A stretch of 64,000 nucleotides of DNA. Origin: Acidimicrobiia bacterium (lineage in GTDB: Bacteria; Actinomycetota; Acidimicrobiia; Spongiisociales; ZC4RG35). Positions 1 through 20,263 of the stretch are shown here, one piece after another. Each line of letters begins with the position of its first letter. Position 1 is the stretch's first letter. The notes beneath the pieces were generated by a model. The model was not told the DNA's origin, ran no database searches, and was given only the letters and a program-made list of their open reading frames with translations. A program made the position numbers and the translations under genes. Where the stretch lies: assembly GCA_012270885.1 (NCBI GenBank), contig JAAXHN010000009.1:48571-112570 (forward strand). The letters run 5' to 3'.

Positions 1-1
1 G

Positions 2-211
2 GCGCCCGATCCGTTCGTGCCGATCACCGTGGTGGAGGTGGAGTTCGTCTCCGAGGGAATCCAGGTGGTGGGTCCCCTGGTCGGTGCCTCGGCGGAGGGG
101 CTTCGGATGGGGATGGCGATGGAGACGGTGGTGGAGGTCTACTACTCCGACGACTCGGGAGAGGTGATCGGCTGGAAGTTCCGTCCCACCGAAGGAGATG
201 CCGATGAGTGA
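2..211 (+). CDS. DUF35-type OB-fold protein, C-terminal end (gene starts left of the window)
   Basis: The frame is open from the window edge. The C-terminal sequence is OB-fold-like (VVGPLVG...GMAMETVVEVYY...GWKFRP). Its stop (209-211) overlaps the start of the thiolase-like gene, which is the usual DUF35 + SCP-x thiolase pairing. Confidence 0.5.
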   Translation, partial: APDPFVPITVVEVEFVSEGIQVVGPLVGASAEGLRMGMAMETVVEVYYSDDSGEVIGWKFRPTEGDADE

Positions 212-1400
212 TGTGATAGTGGCTGGTGTGGGACTCCACCCCTGGGGCAAATTCCCCGAGAAGAGCTGGGTCGAGATGGGCGCCGACGTGGCACTGGACG
301 CGGTGTCGGACGCCGGCATGGAGTGGACGGACGTGGAGGCGATGGTCTCGGGCGCCATGCAGTGGGGAGGGTCGACGGGCATGCGGTCGGGCAACACCAT
401 CGCGGCGGCATTGGGGGAGACCGGGGTGCCGATCGCCAACATCAACAACGCCTGCGCATCGGGGGGTTCCCTGATGAGGGCGGCGTATGCCATGATCACC
501 TCAGGGATGCATGACTCGGTGCTGGTGATCGGGACGGACAAGTCCCCAAAAGGGTACTTTCCCAGCGTGCCGGTGCTGGCCGACGAGCCGCGTCCCCCCG
601 TCGACATGGTGCGCTGGCAGGTGGGAGTCCCCAATCCCGCCTACTGGGCGCTCGAGATGCGAAAGCGCATGGAGGCCTACGGGTCCACCGAGGAGCATCT
701 CGCCCAGGTGAAGGTGAAGAACTCCCGCCACGGCTCGCTCAATCCCTACGCCCGCTACCAGAAGGCATTCACGTTGGAGCAGGTGCTGTCCTCCCCGATG
801 GTGTGCGATCCCCTCCGCCTGCTGGAGATCTGCGCCACCTCCGACGGCGCGGCCGCGGTGGTGCTGGTGAGCGAGAAGAAGGCCCGTCGGTTGGGTGTAA
901 ACCCGCCTGTCAAGGTCGCGGCCTGCTCTCTGGCCAGCGGCGAGTTCGGGGATCCCACCATCCGCATCCCGCTCCTGGCGGCCACCTCCGACGGTGCAGC
1001 CACCGCGCCGCTGCTCTCCGAGAGCCGGCTAGCCGCCCAGATGGCCTACGAGCAGGCCGGTCTGGGGCCCGAGGATATGGACTTCGTGGAACTTCCCGAC
1101 AACTCCTCATGGCATGAATTGCAGTACCTCGAGACCATGGGGTTCTGCGGGGAGGGCGAGGCGGAGAAGCTCCTGGACGCGGGGGAGACCGCGCTGGGAG
1201 GACGGCTGCCGGTTTGTCCCAGCGGAGGATTCTCCTCCTTCGGGGAGGCCACCATGGCCCAGGGAATCCTCCAGATCGTGGAGGTGACCTGGCAACTCCG
1301 CGGAACTGCCGGCACCCGCCAGGTGGAAGGCGCCCGCAAGGCCATCACCGAGGTCTACGGCGCCCAAGCCAACAACTCCGCCTGCGTCCTTACTACCTGA
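204..1400 (+). CDS. thiolase-like lipid-transfer protein (SCP-x / nonspecific thiolase family)
   Basis: ORF 198-1400. It has the NNACASGGS active-site Cys region and the C-terminal CPSGGFSSFGEA...QLRGTAGTRQV. ATG 204 is preferred because GAAGGAG (191-197) directly abuts ATG 198. Confidence 0.85.
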   Translation: MSDVIVAGVGLHPWGKFPEKSWVEMGADVALDAVSDAGMEWTDVEAMVSGAMQWGGSTGMRSGNTIAAALGETGVPIANINNACASGGSLMRAAYAMITSGMHDSVLVIGTDKSPKGYFPSVPVLADEPRPPVDMVRWQVGVPNPAYWALEMRKRMEAYGSTEEHLAQVKVKNSRHGSLNPYARYQKAFTLEQVLSSPMVCDPLRLLEICATSDGAAAVVLVSEKKARRLGVNPPVKVAACSLASGEFGDPTIRIPLLAATSDGAATAPLLSESRLAAQMAYEQAGLGPEDMDFVELPDNSSWHELQYLETMGFCGEGEAEKLLDAGETALGGRLPVCPSGGFSSFGEATMAQGILQIVEVTWQLRGTAGTRQVEGARKAITEVYGAQANNSACVLTT

Positions 1401-1425
1401 GCCGGAAGCCTGGGGATCCGGGCCG

Positions 1426-2205
1426 TCAGGCGGCAACGCGCCGGATGATCTTTCGAGTGAAGTCTTCGTGTGAGGCCAGTGACGAGATCATTTCACCGCC
1501 AACGTCCGAGAGTCTTGCCAGGTCCATCCTGGGAATCTCGCTTTGGTCTGCGAAGACTAGGATCGACTCGAACTTGAGGGTGTGCCGATGAAAGTAGGAC
1601 AGCATTATTGTGGCCAGCCTTGCCTTGTCACGATTGGGTATACCGTAGACGTACAACGGCATGCCCTTGCCTTCAATCCTGTAGTCGACCGGATATGCTT
1701 GGGCATTGGGAATCTCAGGAAGGTAGTCTCGCTGTATCTTGGCTTCATCCACCAGGCTTGTCAATAGGTCTGCCAAGTCGTCGTAGAACGTGGAGCCAAC
1801 GTTTGTTCTGGAGAGCATGGTCAGATCAAATAGCCTGGTCAACGCCTGGCCGAGTCCGAACACGGCTTCCGAAAGCCTCTCAGGAGTCGTGTCCAAACAG
1901 AAAGCCCCGTCCTCCCAGCTAAGTCCGGTCTCGTTCATGATTCGTTCCATTAGCATGCCTCGCGTGCCGTCCATGAACGAGTCGATGTCATGCTCATAGC
2001 TGATGTGCATTAGAGTGTGGCCGCGGTCCGACAGGCGAAGGCCGCCGCCCGATAGCTCCGAGAGATAGATCGGATAGCCATCTCCATCAGGAAATCTGAA
2101 ATGGGTCCGCAACATCAATACACCGTCGGGGCGTTGCTCTATTCCCACGTCCTGGCAAAGACGTTCGCACAGCAGCCTCCTAAGAGTTTCGATATCTGAG
2201 ATCAT
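1426..2205 (-). CDS. hypothetical protein with DUF1828-like N-terminal and DUF1829-like C-terminal halves (function unknown)
   Basis: 259-aa ORF in a visibly low-GC segment. The motif FRFPDGDGYPIYLSE..LRLSDRGHTL is recalled from DUF1828. ATG 2205 overlaps the upstream gene's stop (ATGA at 2202-2205). Confidence 0.65.
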   Translation of the reverse strand: MISDIETLRRLLCERLCQDVGIEQRPDGVLMLRTHFRFPDGDGYPIYLSELSGGGLRLSDRGHTLMHISYEHDIDSFMDGTRGMLMERIMNETGLSWEDGAFCLDTTPERLSEAVFGLGQALTRLFDLTMLSRTNVGSTFYDDLADLLTSLVDEAKIQRDYLPEIPNAQAYPVDYRIEGKGMPLYVYGIPNRDKARLATIMLSYFHRHTLKFESILVFADQSEIPRMDLARLSDVGGEMISSLASHEDFTRKIIRRVAA

Positions 2206-2675
2206 TGGAATATCCTCGGCTGATCGTGCTGGGTTTGAAGCCCGCTGACATTGAAGTCTTCAACAAGACATGCAAGAGCCCCGCTCAGAGTTCTATATCG
2301 GTTGGTCTCCTCCGCCTCTGACTCGGGCTTCCTGCCAGCTAGAATGGCCTTTTGGGTTGCACGATGGATGTGGGGACGGTAGGAGATGTCCCCATGCGGA
2401 TGACTCGACCCGTTGTAACGAGCCAAAGTCAAAGATGGACTGCTCCGTGGAATGTAGAGGATCCCGCAAGAAAAGTCGCTGGTGTCATTGAGATTCTCAC
2501 GCAGATAAATAGAGAAGCGCGGCTCCGAATCTTGTCCGGTTACCTTATAGTTGCGTTGCCGATGTGAGGGTCGTCCCTTGGGCTTCTTCAACCAGCGTGC
2601 GTTCGGATTGGTGACGCGCTTCGGTAACGCTTGGAGTTGGGCGATCTCTTGATCGTCGTAGAGCTTGGTGTTCAT
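2202..2675 (-). CDS. hypothetical 157-aa protein, no recognisable family
   Basis: ORF 2202-2690. The internal ATG at 2675 has a GAGGG/GGAG-rich stretch just upstream. The protein has a very basic N-terminal third (KRVTNPNARWLKKPKGRPSHRQRNYK) and a His cluster (ARYNGSSHPHGD...PHIHR), and it uses low-GC codons. Confidence 0.6.
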   Translation of the reverse strand: MNTKLYDDQEIAQLQALPKRVTNPNARWLKKPKGRPSHRQRNYKVTGQDSEPRFSIYLRENLNDTSDFSCGILYIPRSSPSLTLARYNGSSHPHGDISYRPHIHRATQKAILAGRKPESEAEETNRYRTLSGALACLVEDFNVSGLQTQHDQPRIFQ

Positions 2676-2769
2676 CTCTCCAACCCTCATCGTGCAAAGG
2701 GGAATCCATCATCGCGCCGCGGGAAACCGTCGGGCTCAGTTCCTTGCAGAATGGTACCGTGCCTGGAGT

Positions 2770-3156
2770 CTACGGCGCGGGGCAGTCTTTCATAGGGAGG
2801 ATCCCCCGAGGGGTGAACGCCCAGGCCCACCCGAACCCCGGGATAGAACTGAAGTACCTTCTTCCGCTTCCGCTGGATACGGGAAGGGTGGCCACCACCC
2901 TTCCCTTTTCGACGAGGTGCAACACCTGCCTCTCGAGATCGACTTCCACCCTATTGGGCTGATCCGGCACTTCTGGAACCTGTGCTTCCCATGCCGATAG
3001 GACTTCCATGTCACCGGGTGTCAAGGTGGGGACACGATCCAGATCCGCCGCCTTGCAAAAGGCCACAATGGCATGTCGCATCTCCCCCCTCTGGTACCCG
3101 TCCACCGGCCCCCCGTAGAAGCCCTTGTCGGCCAGAAGGGCTTGGATCCGGACCAC
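2770..3156 (-). pseudogene. L,D-transpeptidase remnant (PG-binding domain plus only the first strands of a YkuD domain)
   Basis: LLADKGFYGGPVDGYQRGEMRHAIVAF is PG_binding_1-like, and VEVDLERQVLHLVEKGRVVATLPVSSGSG...FTPRG matches the start of a YkuD domain. The ORF then stops before the catalytic His/Cys region. No signal peptide is present, and an in-frame stop lies at 3238-3240 upstream. Confidence 0.5.
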
Positions 3157-3374
3157 TTCGAGATTGACAAGGTAGTCGTCCGGGACGCTACTGATTGCGG
3201 ATGTTCGCTCAGCCTGGGCATCCCTCAGCCGCGCCTGTCACCATCATCAATAGGAGTCGGATCCAACTGCGGCGGAGTTGGATCGATGGATACACCAGAC
3301 CGAGGGGTTTCTAGCTGTGGTATCCGACAGCCGTTAGTTCAGTTGAGTCGGCCCTGGCTAGGATTCCGGTCTGT

Positions 3375-9695: not shown

Positions 9696-10658
9696 ATGAC
9701 CGCGATCGCTCCCGCAACGCTCCTGGAACTCTACGAGTCGATGGTGACCATGAAGCTCTGGGACCAGACCGCCCTGCGGCTGCTGCAGGAGGGGAGAGTC
9801 CTGGCCGGGTACCACTCCGGACGAGGACAGGAGGCGATACCGGCGGGGGGCGTGGCGCCGTTGCGCCGCGACGACTATCTGATGTACGCCCACCGGGGAT
9901 TCGGGTACACGATCGCCAAGGGGATGTCGCTGGCCGCCATGTTCGGCGACCTGATGGCCAACACCGCGGGCACGACCGGGGGGCTGGGGGCGGGGATTCC
10001 GCACTTCGCCGACCCCGAGTTGGGGATCCTCGGCCAGGGGGGCACCCTGGGGAGTTGCTTCGGCATCGCCACCGGGGCGGCGTTCAGCGCCAAGTACCGG
10101 GGGACCGATCAGGTTGTGGTGTGCTTCTTCGGGGACGGGACCGCCAACCGGGGGGCCTTCCATGAGTCGGTCAACGCCGCCGCGGCCTGGAAGCTGCCGG
10201 TGGTGTGGATATGCGAGAACAACGGGTATGCGGTTTCGGTGCCGGTTGCGGAGTCTACCGCCGGACGGATTGTGGACCGGGCGGCGGGATACGGGATGCC
10301 GGGGGTTCGTATCAACGGCATGGACGTGACCGAGGTGTACAGGGCCACCTGCGAGGCGGTGCGCCGGGCCAGGGCCGGGGAGGGCCCCACCCTGATCGAG
10401 GCCATCTGCCATCGCTTCCGGGGACACTACGAGGGAGACCCGCAGGTGTATCGCACCGAGGAGGAGACCGAGCGCCTGCTGGCCCTCGACCCGATCACCA
10501 ACCTGGCGGACCGCCTGGTGGCGGATGGCATCGCCAGCGAGGAGCGCCTCGGGGAGTTGGAGGTCAGGGTCCAGGACAGGATAGACCGGGCGGTGCAGGA
10601 GGCGTCATCGGCGCCCATGCCCGGCCCCGAGCGGCTCTATGAAGGTCTCTACGTATGA
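9696..10658 (+). CDS. thiamine-diphosphate-dependent 2-oxoacid dehydrogenase E1 alpha subunit
   Basis: FFGDGTANRGAFHESVNAAAAWKLPVVWICENNGYAVS (TPP motif). Its stop overlaps the E1 beta start. Confidence 0.9.
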   Translation: MTAIAPATLLELYESMVTMKLWDQTALRLLQEGRVLAGYHSGRGQEAIPAGGVAPLRRDDYLMYAHRGFGYTIAKGMSLAAMFGDLMANTAGTTGGLGAGIPHFADPELGILGQGGTLGSCFGIATGAAFSAKYRGTDQVVVCFFGDGTANRGAFHESVNAAAAWKLPVVWICENNGYAVSVPVAESTAGRIVDRAAGYGMPGVRINGMDVTEVYRATCEAVRRARAGEGPTLIEAICHRFRGHYEGDPQVYRTEEETERLLALDPITNLADRLVADGIASEERLGELEVRVQDRIDRAVQEASSAPMPGPERLYEGLYV

Positions 10659-11641
10659 GCCAGGCCACCGCCACCCGCACGCTCACCTTCTCCCAGGCCA
10701 TCCGGGAGGCGCTCAGAGAAGAGATGGAGCGCGATGACCGAGTTTTCGTCTGGGGGGAGGACGTGGCCGTCTACGGGGGCATCTACGGGGCGACCGCCGG
10801 GTTGTTGGAGCAGTTCGGCCCCCGGCGGGTAATCGATACTCCCATCTCCGAGACGATGATCGTGGGAGCGGCGGTGGGCGCCGCCATCACCGGGCTGCGG
10901 CCGGTGGCGGAGTTGCAGTCCAGCGGGTACTTCGGAATCGCCATGGACGAGCTTTACCACAAGGTGGCGCGATGGCGATACATGCACGGGGGCGTCTTCA
11001 CCGTCCCGCTGGTGATCAGACTTCCCGAGGGCGCCAAGGGGGCCGGTCCCGAGCACGACGTCAGCCCCGAGGCCCTGTTCCTCTCCGCGTCGGGAGCGTA
11101 TGTGGTCATCCCGTCGGACCCCGCCGACGCCCTGGGTCTCATGAAGTCCTCGATCCGGGACGACAACCCGGTGCTGTTCTTCGAGCATGCCGGTTTGTAC
11201 GCCCACCGGGGGGAGGTGCCCGCCGGCGACCACCTGGTGCCGCTGGGCGAGGCTGCGGTGAAGCGGGAGGGAACCGATGTCACCGTGATCGCCTGGTCGC
11301 GCATGGTGGGGGAGTCCCTTCGGGCGGCCGCGCAGTTGGAAGCGGAGGGCATTGATGTGGAGGTGGTCGATCCCCGGGGGCTCCGTCCCCTGGACCTGGA
11401 CACGATCCTGGAGTCGGTGGCCAAGACCGGCCGGGTGGTGATCGCCCACGAAGCGCCGAAGACCGGGGGCGCCGGGGGAGAGGTGGCGGCCATCATCGCC
11501 GAGGAGGCGCTCGAGTACCTGGAGTCGCCGATCATACGGGTGGCGTCCGCCGACGTCCCCATCCCCCAGAGCCGCTATCTCCAACAGTTCCTGATACCCA
11601 CCGCCGCCTCGGTGACCGAAGCGGTAAGGAGGCTTGACTGA
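10655..11641 (+). CDS. 2-oxoacid dehydrogenase E1 beta subunit
   Basis: VFVWGEDVAVYGGIYGATAGL...RVIDTPISE, with the transketolase-like C-terminal domain. Confidence 0.9.
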   Translation: MSQATATRTLTFSQAIREALREEMERDDRVFVWGEDVAVYGGIYGATAGLLEQFGPRRVIDTPISETMIVGAAVGAAITGLRPVAELQSSGYFGIAMDELYHKVARWRYMHGGVFTVPLVIRLPEGAKGAGPEHDVSPEALFLSASGAYVVIPSDPADALGLMKSSIRDDNPVLFFEHAGLYAHRGEVPAGDHLVPLGEAAVKREGTDVTVIAWSRMVGESLRAAAQLEAEGIDVEVVDPRGLRPLDLDTILESVAKTGRVVIAHEAPKTGGAGGEVAAIIAEEALEYLESPIIRVASADVPIPQSRYLQQFLIPTAASVTEAVRRLD

Positions 11642-18375: not shown

Positions 18376-19271
18376 CCACCACTGCGTCCGATTCGGGAGC
18401 GCCCCAGGCGGAAGAGCCGAGAGTGAAGGTGCGGGGGGCGGCCACCACCATCCGATTCCCCTTTGTCTCCATGGTGGTGCTGGCGCTGGTAGTGCTGGTG
18501 GCGGTCTTCGCCCCTCTGATCGCCCCTCACGATCCGGAGGTGGGACAACTCTCCAACAAGCTGATCCCGCCCGTGTGGCAGGAGGGAGGCCGAAGCGACT
18601 TTCTGCTGGGCACTGACACACTGGGCCGTGACATCTTCACCCGCATCCTCTATGGCGCCCGGGTCTCATTGATGGTGGCGATCCTGGCCACCGGGCTGGC
18701 CGGGGTGCTGGGGACCATAGTGGGTCTGATCGCCGGCTTCTACCGGGGATGGGTGGAGATCCTCCTGATGAGGATCACCGACATGACCCTGGCGCTACCT
18801 CTGATGCTGATGGCCATCGTGCTGGTGGCCCTGCTGGGGGCCAGCCTCACCAACGTGCTCCTGGTGATCGTGATCCTGCTGTGGCCCTACTACGCGAGGC
18901 AGATCCGCGGCGAGGCCCTGGCGATAAGCGAGGAGGACTTCATCGACCTCGCCCGGGTGGCGGGTCTCTCCAATCCCCGCATCCTCTGGAGACACATCCT
19001 CCCCAACGTGATGCCCACCATCGGCGTGCTAGCCACCCTGCAGGTGGCGCTGATCATTCTCCTCGAAGCCTCCCTCAGCTTCCTGGGGGTGGGTATCCCG
19101 CCTCCCACGCCCGCATGGGGGTTGATGGTGGCCGACGGGCGGGACATCCTGGGCCGGGCCTGGTGGGTCTCGATCATCCCCGGGATCGCCATTTTCGGAG
19201 TGGTGCTGGCCGCCAACCTTCTCGGGGACTGGGTGAGGGACCGTTTCGACCCCAAGCTGCGGCAGTTGTAG
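18372..19271 (+). CDS. ABC transporter permease, OppC/DppC type
   Basis: ATG 18372 overlaps the upstream stop (ATGA). It has LLGTDTLGRDIFTRILYGARVSL and FIDLARVAGLSNPRILWRHILPN. Confidence 0.85.
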   Translation: MTTTASDSGAPQAEEPRVKVRGAATTIRFPFVSMVVLALVVLVAVFAPLIAPHDPEVGQLSNKLIPPVWQEGGRSDFLLGTDTLGRDIFTRILYGARVSLMVAILATGLAGVLGTIVGLIAGFYRGWVEILLMRITDMTLALPLMLMAIVLVALLGASLTNVLLVIVILLWPYYARQIRGEALAISEEDFIDLARVAGLSNPRILWRHILPNVMPTIGVLATLQVALIILLEASLSFLGVGIPPPTPAWGLMVADGRDILGRAWWVSIIPGIAIFGVVLAANLLGDWVRDRFDPKLRQL

Positions 19272-19273
19272 CC

Positions 19274-20263
19274 ATGTTGCTGGAAGTAGAGGACCTGCGC
19301 GTCCAGTTCCACACCCGTCGAGGAGTGGTGAAGGCGGTGGATGGGGTGAGTTTCTCCCTCGACCGGGGGGAAACTCTGGGACTGGTGGGAGAGTCCGGCT
19401 CGGGAAAGAGCGTGAGTTGCATGGCGCTGATGCGACTGGTGGAAGCGCCTGCCGGGCGCATCGTCGGAGGGAGCGTCCGCTTGGACGGAGAGGAGTTGTT
19501 GGACCTCTCCGAGCGGGAGATGAGACAGATCAGAGGGGGCCAGATCTCCCTGATCCTCCAGGATCCCCTCAGTTCCCTGAACCCCGGATACACGGTGGGC
19601 AACCAGGTGGCCGAGGCGATCCGCATCCACCAGGGACTGCGGGGAAGGGCACTGCGGGACAGCGTCGTCGAGATCCTCAGCCAGGTGGGCATCCCCCAGG
19701 CGGAGCGGCGCCTTAAGCAGTACCCGCACCAGATGTCGGGCGGGATGCGCCAGCGGGTGGCGGGCGCCATCGCCCTATCGTGCCGTCCCTCGCTTCTGAT
19801 CGCGGACGAACCCACCACGTCCCTGGACGCGACCGTCCAGGCCCAGTACCTGCGGCTACTGTCGGAGTTGCAGCAGGAGTTCCGGTTCGGGATGATCTTC
19901 GTCACCCACGACCTGGGAATAGTCGCCCGGCTGTGTGACCGGGTGGCGGTCATGTACGCGGGTCGGATCGTCGAGACGGGGAGCACCCGCCAGATTTTCA
20001 ACGAGCCCGCCCATCCCTACGCCAAGGCGCTGCTGGCGACCCTTCCCAGCCTGGAGTCGCGCAAGAAGCGACTGCTGACGGTGAGCGGGCAGCCTCCCCT
20101 TGCCATCGATCTCCCCCCGGGTTGCTCCTTCGCTCCCCGGTGCCCGGAGGTGATGGATGTCTGCCGGGAGGAGTTTCCCGGCGAAGCCACCACGGGCGAC
20201 CTCCATCGGGTGCTTTGCTGGCTGCACTCGGCGTCCGCAGAAATGTCGCTGCCTGCGCGGTAA
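19274..20263 (+). CDS. ABC transporter ATP-binding protein, OppD/DppD type
   Basis: MLLEVEDLRVQF, Walker A GESGSGKS, signature MSGGMRQR and Walker B LIADEPTT. Confidence 0.85.
   Translation: MLLEVEDLRVQFHTRRGVVKAVDGVSFSLDRGETLGLVGESGSGKSVSCMALMRLVEAPAGRIVGGSVRLDGEELLDLSEREMRQIRGGQISLILQDPLSSLNPGYTVGNQVAEAIRIHQGLRGRALRDSVVEILSQVGIPQAERRLKQYPHQMSGGMRQRVAGAIALSCRPSLLIADEPTTSLDATVQAQYLRLLSELQQEFRFGMIFVTHDLGIVARLCDRVAVMYAGRIVETGSTRQIFNEPAHPYAKALLATLPSLESRKKRLLTVSGQPPLAIDLPPGCSFAPRCPEVMDVCREEFPGEATTGDLHRVLCWLHSASAEMSLPAR

Follow-up and report, generated by a model that had tools for sequence, protein, structure and literature searches.

A candidate two-gene DUF6978–DUF1828 anti-phage cassette in an Acidimicrobiia genome, related to the catalogued candidate system PDC-M24

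A stretch of 64,000 nucleotides (nt) from an Acidimicrobiia bacterium (GenBank assembly GCA_012270885.1, contig JAAXHN010000009.1, positions 48,571 to 112,570 of the forward strand; here called the window) was analysed around a short segment of low G+C content (GC) that carries two overlapping minus-strand genes, termed A and B. In our judgement the segment is probably a functional two-gene DUF6978–DUF1828 cassette, a divergent branch of the defence candidate PDC-M24, and most likely serves as a two-component anti-phage module of an abortive-infection or toxin–antitoxin (TA)-like kind; the defence function is inferred from genomic context. The first-pass annotation, made from the sequence by itself, had cautiously proposed a candidate TA/defence-type module, and this proposal is supported by the family links to PDC-M24 and by the restriction–modification (R-M) and prophage contexts described below. 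The module is, however, already catalogued, as candidate PDC-M24.

Both genes were found intact, as predicted (open reading frames (ORFs) 1426..2205(−) and 2202..2690(−)). The upstream ORF, 2202..2690(−), begins at an in-frame ATG at 2690 and would give 162 amino acids (aa); because the close homologues of A all begin at the second ATG (MNTKLY, 2675), gene A was assigned to 2202–2675, which bears out the predicted length of 157 aa. The overlap of the A stop and the B start in ATGA, reported earlier at 2202–2205, was confirmed in the sequence and implies translational coupling; most related loci, and the prophage copies too, likewise have an overlap of 4 nt or 1 nt.

The earlier statement that A fits no family stood for direct searches, in which A gave no match in Pfam, NCBIfam or PADLOC, but not for profile searches, which led to DUF6978/PDC-M24A and to phrog_27326 (E=3.5e-42). 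A profile of the close homologues of A (242 were found, all of ∼157 aa) was searched against 1.84 billion representative proteins and returned 992 clusters (50 % identity), nearly all of them single-domain proteins of ∼155–165 aa. When 83 of the remoter members were scanned with Pfam and PADLOC, DUF6978 was matched by 38 and PDC-M24A by 24 (best E=2e-8), and on the strength of these matches A is classed, by sequence profile, as a divergent member of the DUF6978/PDC-M24A superfamily. The DUF6978 gathering score was passed, over nearly the full length, by three of ten remote members scanned individually; P0354, P0382 and P0387, which pass it, have A-profile E values of 1e-19 to 1e-22. The family shares the motif RxN...DFSCG...LxRYNGxxHxHx[D/N]...HIHRA[ST]E, with an invariant core of K19, R59, D67/S69/C70, R86/N88/G89, H92, H94, H102 and H104, followed by A-[ST]-E. 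A side product of the search was P0285 (342 aa), in which an A-type domain lies C-terminal to an AAA_14 ATPase fragment matching PADLOC PDC-S01; this may reflect either a genuine fusion or an error of gene calling.

Protein B was matched by Pfam DUF1828 (PF08861) at residues 34–124 (E=4e-17; 62.6 bits against a gathering cutoff of 22; profile positions 1–90 of 91), in the N-terminal half where this domain had been anticipated. Matches were also obtained to PADLOC PDC-M24B (PDLC04540, E=1e-11; PDLC04539, E=1.8e-11) and to phrog_5059 (E=2e-31), and 1198 homologues were collected. The companion domain DUF1829 (PF08862), which the first-pass annotation had placed in the C-terminal half, was not recovered: the isolated half gave no match at E≤1, and the precomputed Pfam column for the 240 listed B homologues holds PF08861 and in no case PF08862. 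DUF1829 has recently been linked to a validated defence system, DS-6B/HipAD (DUF3037+DUF1829), reported with DefensePredictor (PMC13092281). B has DUF1828 in common with DUF1828–DUF1829 proteins, but differs from them and from DS-6B/HipAD in that DUF1829 is undetectable in B and in its 240 listed homologues, and in having no HipA-like kinase partner. D40/G41/D42, S59/D60 and D174 are invariant in B, and E71 and D73 nearly so.

PDC-M24 was described as cassette CAS_00098 (FAM_00129>>FAM_00065; 153 RefSeq instances) and "assigned as candidate" by guilt-by-embedding, that is, from cassettes lying inside BREX, DISARM or Type I R-M systems; it is one of 145 PDC systems, all of which are listed as candidates (Payne, Hughes, Fineran & Jackson 2024, 10.1101/2024.01.29.577857). 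Like PDC-M24, the window pair is a cassette of two adjacent genes on one strand in the order A>>B; B matches PDC-M24B, PDC-M24A is matched by relatives of A, among them a phage homologue with 43 % identity, and embedding in other defence systems is found for both. The window cassette differs in that its A is too divergent for a direct PDC-M24A match and its B is matched over the N-terminal half only, in that its clade occurs in Type III R-M operons, whereas the published screen covered Hma, BREX, DISARM and Type I R-M, and in that the clade circulates among sponge-associated metagenome-assembled genomes (MAGs). The pair is a divergent sponge-symbiont clade of a catalogued candidate and not a new kind of system, and the PADLOC models half-recognise it.

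The two genes were found to travel together. In a scan of one genome per species, with loci collected through A (25 loci, all from MAGs and labelled L001 onwards), B directly follows A in 23 of the 25; with the phage copies, this bears out the co-localisation of homologues that the first-pass annotation had called for. The carriers belong to Acidimicrobiia, Chloroflexota (Caldilineaceae, Dehalococcoidia), Nitrospirales, Vicinamibacterales, Pseudomonadales, Alphaproteobacteria, Spirochaetia, Latescibacterota and Rhodothermales, at least nine phyla or classes in total, and identity to the window proteins (55–92 % for A, 68–97 % for B) is unusually high across phyla. Bins named "SB06xx" derive from symbionts of the sponge Ircinia ramosa (PMC11706023); the window is 91 % identical to one such bin, an Acidimicrobiia. 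One cassette is shared across phyla among sponge symbionts. Neither A nor the phage B protein found a match when searched against the plasmid collection. In three loci A is destroyed and B intact: A is frameshifted in L021, and in L022 and L023 it is reduced to its last 45–50 residues with other small genes inserted, and all 44 invariant or near-invariant residues of B are kept in all three. The converse, B destroyed and A intact, was not seen among the loci compared. Locus L008 (Caldilineaceae) holds a second, divergent A'–B' pair (18637–19911; 36 % and 34 % identity; DUF1828 in B', E=1e-23) beside an IS4/5-type DDE transposase, ∼8 kb downstream of its R-M-embedded copy.

In 13 of the loci the pair sits inside a Type III R-M operon, with Res on one side and Mod on the other, though 13 of 25 is not an unbiased frequency, the loci having been collected through A. 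Res is a ∼1030-aa ResIII protein with a C-terminal PD...ExK motif, and Mod is an N6_N4_Mtase of 930–1090 aa, present as two separate pieces at some loci; A shares ATGA with the Res stop in one embedded locus. Scattered through the embedded loci are small genes of TA type (MNT nucleotidyltransferase, DUF2283, HicB-like), and a UvrD helicase or SIR2 protein sometimes comes next after the block. For the reverse test, 80 metagenomic operons of the same Res family (73–80 % aa identity) were examined. None of the 80 carries A or B; Res abuts Mod (gap <150 bp) in ∼38, and in ∼32 (∼40 %) the slot holds other cargo of 0.45–3.1 kb, including HATPase_c_4/Schlafen-AlbA_2, DUF4062, 23S_rRNA_IVP, Bro-N, Fic/DOC, NYN, RhuM, Abi_2, GmrSD_N, DUF3800 and PIN plus antitoxin genes. 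On these counts A–B is not an R-M subunit but an optional insert in an embedding hotspot whose other occupants are abortive-infection, TA and nuclease genes. That the pair is an accessory subunit or regulator of Type III R-M, acting for example on Res/Mod expression or specificity and stranded in the window after loss of the R-M genes, is accordingly held to be very improbable: its position exactly between Res and Mod in the embedded loci, at times with an ATGA overlap to Res, would suit such a role, but the empty or otherwise filled slots of the sister operons do not, about half of the A–B loci and all prophage copies are without Res and Mod, and B shows no correlation in pairwise divergence with Res (rho=0.05) or Mod (rho=−0.04).

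The embedded relatives of the cassette, and not the window copy, resemble PrrC and RloC, abortive-infection genes nested in Type I R-M operons, in location: a separate suicide or defence function is carried inside an R-M operon, dispensable for restriction and missing from the majority of sister operons. PrrC is reported to occur almost only within R-M systems (10.1101/2024.01.29.577857). A–B differs in having no ABC-ATPase or anticodon-nuclease domain, in consisting of two genes instead of one and in occurring also alone and in prophages; a guarding of the R-M system by A–B is, by this analogy, hypothetical. Two observations on the R-M family are added for their own sake. In the two Nitrospirales loci (L003, 15301–19104; L020, 16197–20015) the order Res–A–B–Mod is followed by a ∼1270-aa SIR2_2 protein, which suggests a larger composite defence island. 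The family with the conserved Res occurs in at least 561 metagenome stretches, and its Res–Mod junction was seen in L002–L011, L020, L022, L023, L029 and L032–L111; the junction of this widespread, highly conserved family is a hotspot that could be mined for further defence genes.

The second context is that of prophages. The temperate Pseudomonas phages 5399, phita81A and 5371 encode a coupled A–B pair, 43 % (A, E=1e-43) and 37 % (B, E=1e-61) identical to that of the window, in the same order and with the same 4-nt overlap, and this pair matches both PDC-M24A (PDLC04538, 1.2e-8) and PDC-M24B (1.3e-13). It comes shortly after the cI repressor gene and is encoded on its strand: cro is read leftwards, and cI (helix-turn-helix (HTH) plus Peptidase_S24), none to two small ORFs, DUF6978 and DUF1828 are read rightwards. 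The layout recurs in P. aeruginosa, Comamonas aquatica and Kushneria sinocarnis; the A partners in prophages are annotated PF22398, and for P. aeruginosa the protein appears in 243 blocks of the collection. In lambda the slot after cI is occupied by rexAB, and many prophages have exclusion genes there that are expressed in the lysogen. rexA and rexB are exclusion genes co-transcribed with cI, and RexB is a membrane protein. The prophage pairs of Pseudomonas, Comamonas and Kushneria are like rexA–rexB in forming a two-gene unit directly after the repressor on the same strand, but A–B has no sequence or family similarity to them, and the copy in the window is not part of a prophage. No membrane-protein family was matched by A or B; a transmembrane prediction was not run.

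PDC-M24 being one of 145 catalogued defence candidates, the present data add independent support for a defence role on three counts: the embedding in Type III R-M, a system type outside the original screen; the recurrent position after cI in prophages of three genera; and purifying selection on both genes, for which the values are given below.

Several observations weigh against the reading of the pair as an anti-phage branch of PDC-M24. The link of the window A to PDC-M24A and DUF6978 is transitive, by way of the remote members: A itself gave no match to DUF6978 (PF22398) at E≤0.1 and none to the PADLOC models of PDC-M24A at E≤1. The PDC-M24B match of B spans residues 19–150 of 259, its N-terminal half only. 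No recognised toxin, antitoxin, HTH or ribbon-helix-helix (RHH), or nuclease motif was found in either protein with Pfam, NCBIfam or PADLOC; no conserved D...(D/E)xK signature could be aligned in B, where E178 and K180 vary in the diverse alignment, and a Foldseek search of the A model against the PDB gave no match at E≤1e-3. The literature search returned no paper that names PDC-M24 and only incidental mentions of DUF1828 and DUF6978. The window pair has metabolic genes around it and no other defence gene in its vicinity, the neighbours of the other solitary copies are mixed and not decisive for a defence-island context, and the manner in which the loci were collected bears on the count of embedded copies, as stated above. 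Finally, the window A has Gln at position 108 (Q108, codon 2352–2354), where at least 90 % of the close relatives have Glu.

The last point concerns the activity of the window copy. Position 108 is Glu in L001, the closest relative, and in most remote DUF6978 members (HIHRA[ST]E), and Q108 could be an attenuating substitution. The pair might be an inert hitch-hiker, left over from a prophage or from an R-M island that has decayed, and without activity in this genome; this is considered improbable. It would agree with Q108, with the adjoining decaying L,D-transpeptidase gene, with the absence of a Res or Mod gene nearby and with the finding that no convincing promoter was detected, but both ORFs are full length and keep all family-invariant residues, and an identical A is found on five contigs from several samples. 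In the comparison with L001, the ratio of nonsynonymous to synonymous substitution rates (dN/dS) was 0.17 for A and 0.046 for B over a dS of 0.23–0.26, comparable to the neighbouring thiolase gene (dN/dS 0.089, dS 0.36). Both genes are under purifying selection.

A pure addiction module was weighed with the same data. On this account a type II-like TA pair, with basic A (pI 9.6) as toxin and acidic B (pI 5.0) as antitoxin, would stabilise itself and its neighbourhood, R-M operons and prophages, with no direct anti-phage role. Two small coupled genes with a 4-nt overlap, the basic/acidic pairing, orphans of B and none of A, spread by horizontal transfer without mobility genes, and an R-M slot that also hosts PIN–antitoxin, MNT, DUF2283 and HicB-like TA parts all suit it. 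Toxin-first type II pairs are exemplified by higBA, hicAB and mqsRA. A–B is like these in its compact coupled operon, in its basic and acidic partners, in the orphaned acidic partner and in often residing in mobile or defence regions; it departs from them in that neither a known toxin or antitoxin fold nor a DNA-binding antitoxin domain is present and in that B, at 259 aa, is the more conserved partner. The account is nevertheless rated as rather unlikely, since neither A nor B has a domain known from toxins or antitoxins, or an HTH or RHH domain for DNA binding, a large two-domain B that is better conserved than A would be unusual for an antitoxin, and the position after cI and the embedding in R-M operons are classic places of defence genes. 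TA and abortive-infection functions are, besides, not mutually exclusive.

For the anti-phage module that we prefer, the following mode of action may be envisaged. By translational coupling the two proteins would be made in fixed proportion, and they would probably act as a complex in which one senses or restrains the other. With low confidence, a sub-model is preferred in which basic A is a nucleic-acid-directed effector with the invariant His cluster, and the acidic, more conserved B would be its partner, regulator or sensor. A harmful effector A with a harmless partner B would fit, because loci with A destroyed and B intact are found and because of the charge pattern; the same loci and charges also fit B as an effector that is inert without A. 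In this reverse model B would be a PD-(D/E)xK-like nuclease activated by A.

Structure models were consulted for both proteins. The AlphaFold2 model of A (predicted local distance difference test (pLDDT) 88, predicted template modelling score (pTM) 0.85) is an antiparallel sheet with flanking helices, and the histidines lie on a predicted β-loop-β-helix element (β-hairpin plus helix). Its sole Foldseek match in BFVD was one uncharacterised siphovirus protein. As speculation, the His cluster would suit a metal site, and a His-Me-finger (HNH-like) reading might be suggested by the predicted ββα structure and the motif spacing only; no fold or profile match backed the latter. The AlphaFold2 model of B (pLDDT 81, pTM 0.52) has two domains, and its best Foldseek matches were the PD-(D/E)xK nucleases Bax1, Can2, Cdn1, VC1899/Card1, BsoBI and Cas4, to which the B model bears a weak resemblance (probability 0.9–0.97, E≥8.6e-3 (∼1e-2), template modelling score ≤0.32 (∼0.3)). 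With Can2 and Card1/VC1899, which carry a sensor domain, and with Bax1, the top matches, B would share the two-domain build, and it has conserved acidic residues; it differs from Can2, Card1 and VC1899 in having no alignable D...(D/E)xK, no CARF signature and no sequence match to a PDB chain. Searches of all PDB chains with profiles of the A and B families, both narrow and broad, gave no significant match.

A bolder proposal, which we regard as possible but would not expect, is that DUF6978–DUF1828 constitutes a mechanistically new two-component immune system. A, with HxHx[D/N]...HIHxATE, would be a new metal-dependent nuclease-like effector and B its sensor or inhibitor; the pair would serve in Res–Mod operons as a PrrC-like back-up when restriction is bypassed, and the cassette would be shared across the sponge holobiont. 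The DUF6978–DUF1828 family is widespread and without structural relatives, and the P. aeruginosa prophage allele offers tractable experimental material. Mutation targets are H92, H94, H102, H104 and E108 in A and D42, D60 and D174 in B, and the survival of B without A predicts which partner is toxic.

The pair was probably acquired horizontally. The module has a GC content of 0.540; tiles of 1265 nt across the window average 0.654 (sd 0.025), which gives z=−4.65, and the module is the lowest of all 1255 such tiles; within the low-GC block it is 0.52–0.57, and in the flanks 0.60–0.70. GC at third codon positions (GC3) is 0.60 for A and 0.66 for B against 0.86 for the thiolase and 0.80 for the acyl-CoA dehydrogenase among the neighbouring genes. 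The A/T-rich shift described from the raw sequence is thereby substantiated, and the A/T-rich string then quoted was located at 2487–2517. The block is consistent with a horizontally acquired segment, and the GC of the module is below that of the flanks in most of 23 related loci. In 27 loci compared, conservation ends exactly at the two ORFs, and no shared end sequence and no att-like or attC-like site was found around the pair. The absence of an integrase, a transposase or a flanking repeat, as noted at the outset, was upheld, and no Rfam family was matched; searches of the window for repeats, promoters, terminators and Rfam families gave nothing meaningful.

That the genes encode a mobile housekeeping or niche-metabolic enzyme pair is barely credible. 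Metabolic neighbours in the window and at some solitary loci would suit it, but there is no enzyme-family match, the spread over at least nine phyla is patchy at the identities given above, the composition is foreign, and relatives occur in phages and R-M operons. The expectation that neither protein would match a housekeeping family was likewise borne out in the Pfam and NCBIfam scans. The first-pass annotation had named three computational outcomes that would speak against it; a GC and codon deviation, co-localised homologues and no housekeeping match were what was found. The features of the segment are collected in Table 1.

Table 1. Features of the low-GC segment and its borders (window coordinates).
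Feature	Position	Strand	Description or basis
Gene A	2202..2675	−	157 aa, basic, divergent DUF6978/PDC-M24A superfamily member (by sequence profile)
Gene B	1426..2205	−	259 aa, acidic, DUF1828 N-terminal plus uncharacterised C-terminal domain (∼aa 140–259)
ATGA overlap, A stop/B start	2202..2205	−	read from sequence
Low-GC block coinciding with both genes	1401..2800	not applicable	GC scan
Convergent spacer, B stop to thiolase stop	1401..1425		25 nt
L,D-transpeptidase pseudogene remnant	2803..3186	−	tblastn with L007 orthologue

On the left, B and the thiolase gene converge: the thiolase stop lies at 1400 and the B stop codon begins at 1426, in agreement with the distance of 25 nt first noted, and no terminator was detected in this spacer. 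On the right, upstream of A, the ORF 2770..3156 is what is left of an L,D-transpeptidase gene. In an alignment with the 265-aa orthologue from L007, a syntenic Acidimicrobiia genome, it covers residues 36–163; the end with the signal peptide and the end with the catalytic His/Cys are both missing, and it gave sub-threshold PG_binding_1 and YkuD matches only; the loss of both ends reported earlier was thus verified by alignment. The remnant is a scar adjoining the insertion.

The closest relative, L001 (an Acidimicrobiia bin), is 91 % identical in DNA across window 1–2801, and the window segment 2802–3374 is wholly deleted in it. In L007 the pair (9926–11196) lies between acyl-CoA dehydrogenase and PNPOx genes and not between L,D-transpeptidase and thiolase genes; it is only 66–76 % identical to the window pair (1426–2675) and no closer to it than copies from other phyla. 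Because the slot differs and the L007 copy is no closer than those of other phyla, it is suggested that the same ∼12-kb neighbourhood received the cassette twice, by independent acquisition, or that a local relocation took place. Upstream of A the loci share nothing, except that three solitary ones (L014, L015 and L017; Acidimicrobiales, Candidatus Aldehydirespirator) have a conserved stretch ∼60–110 nt upstream of the A start, which may extend A by ∼20 aa at its N terminus or be a regulatory region common to the three. Three stages of decay of the L,D-transpeptidase gene were observed: intact with 265 aa in L007 (17445–18242), a remnant in the window, and deleted in L001 (9844–9866).

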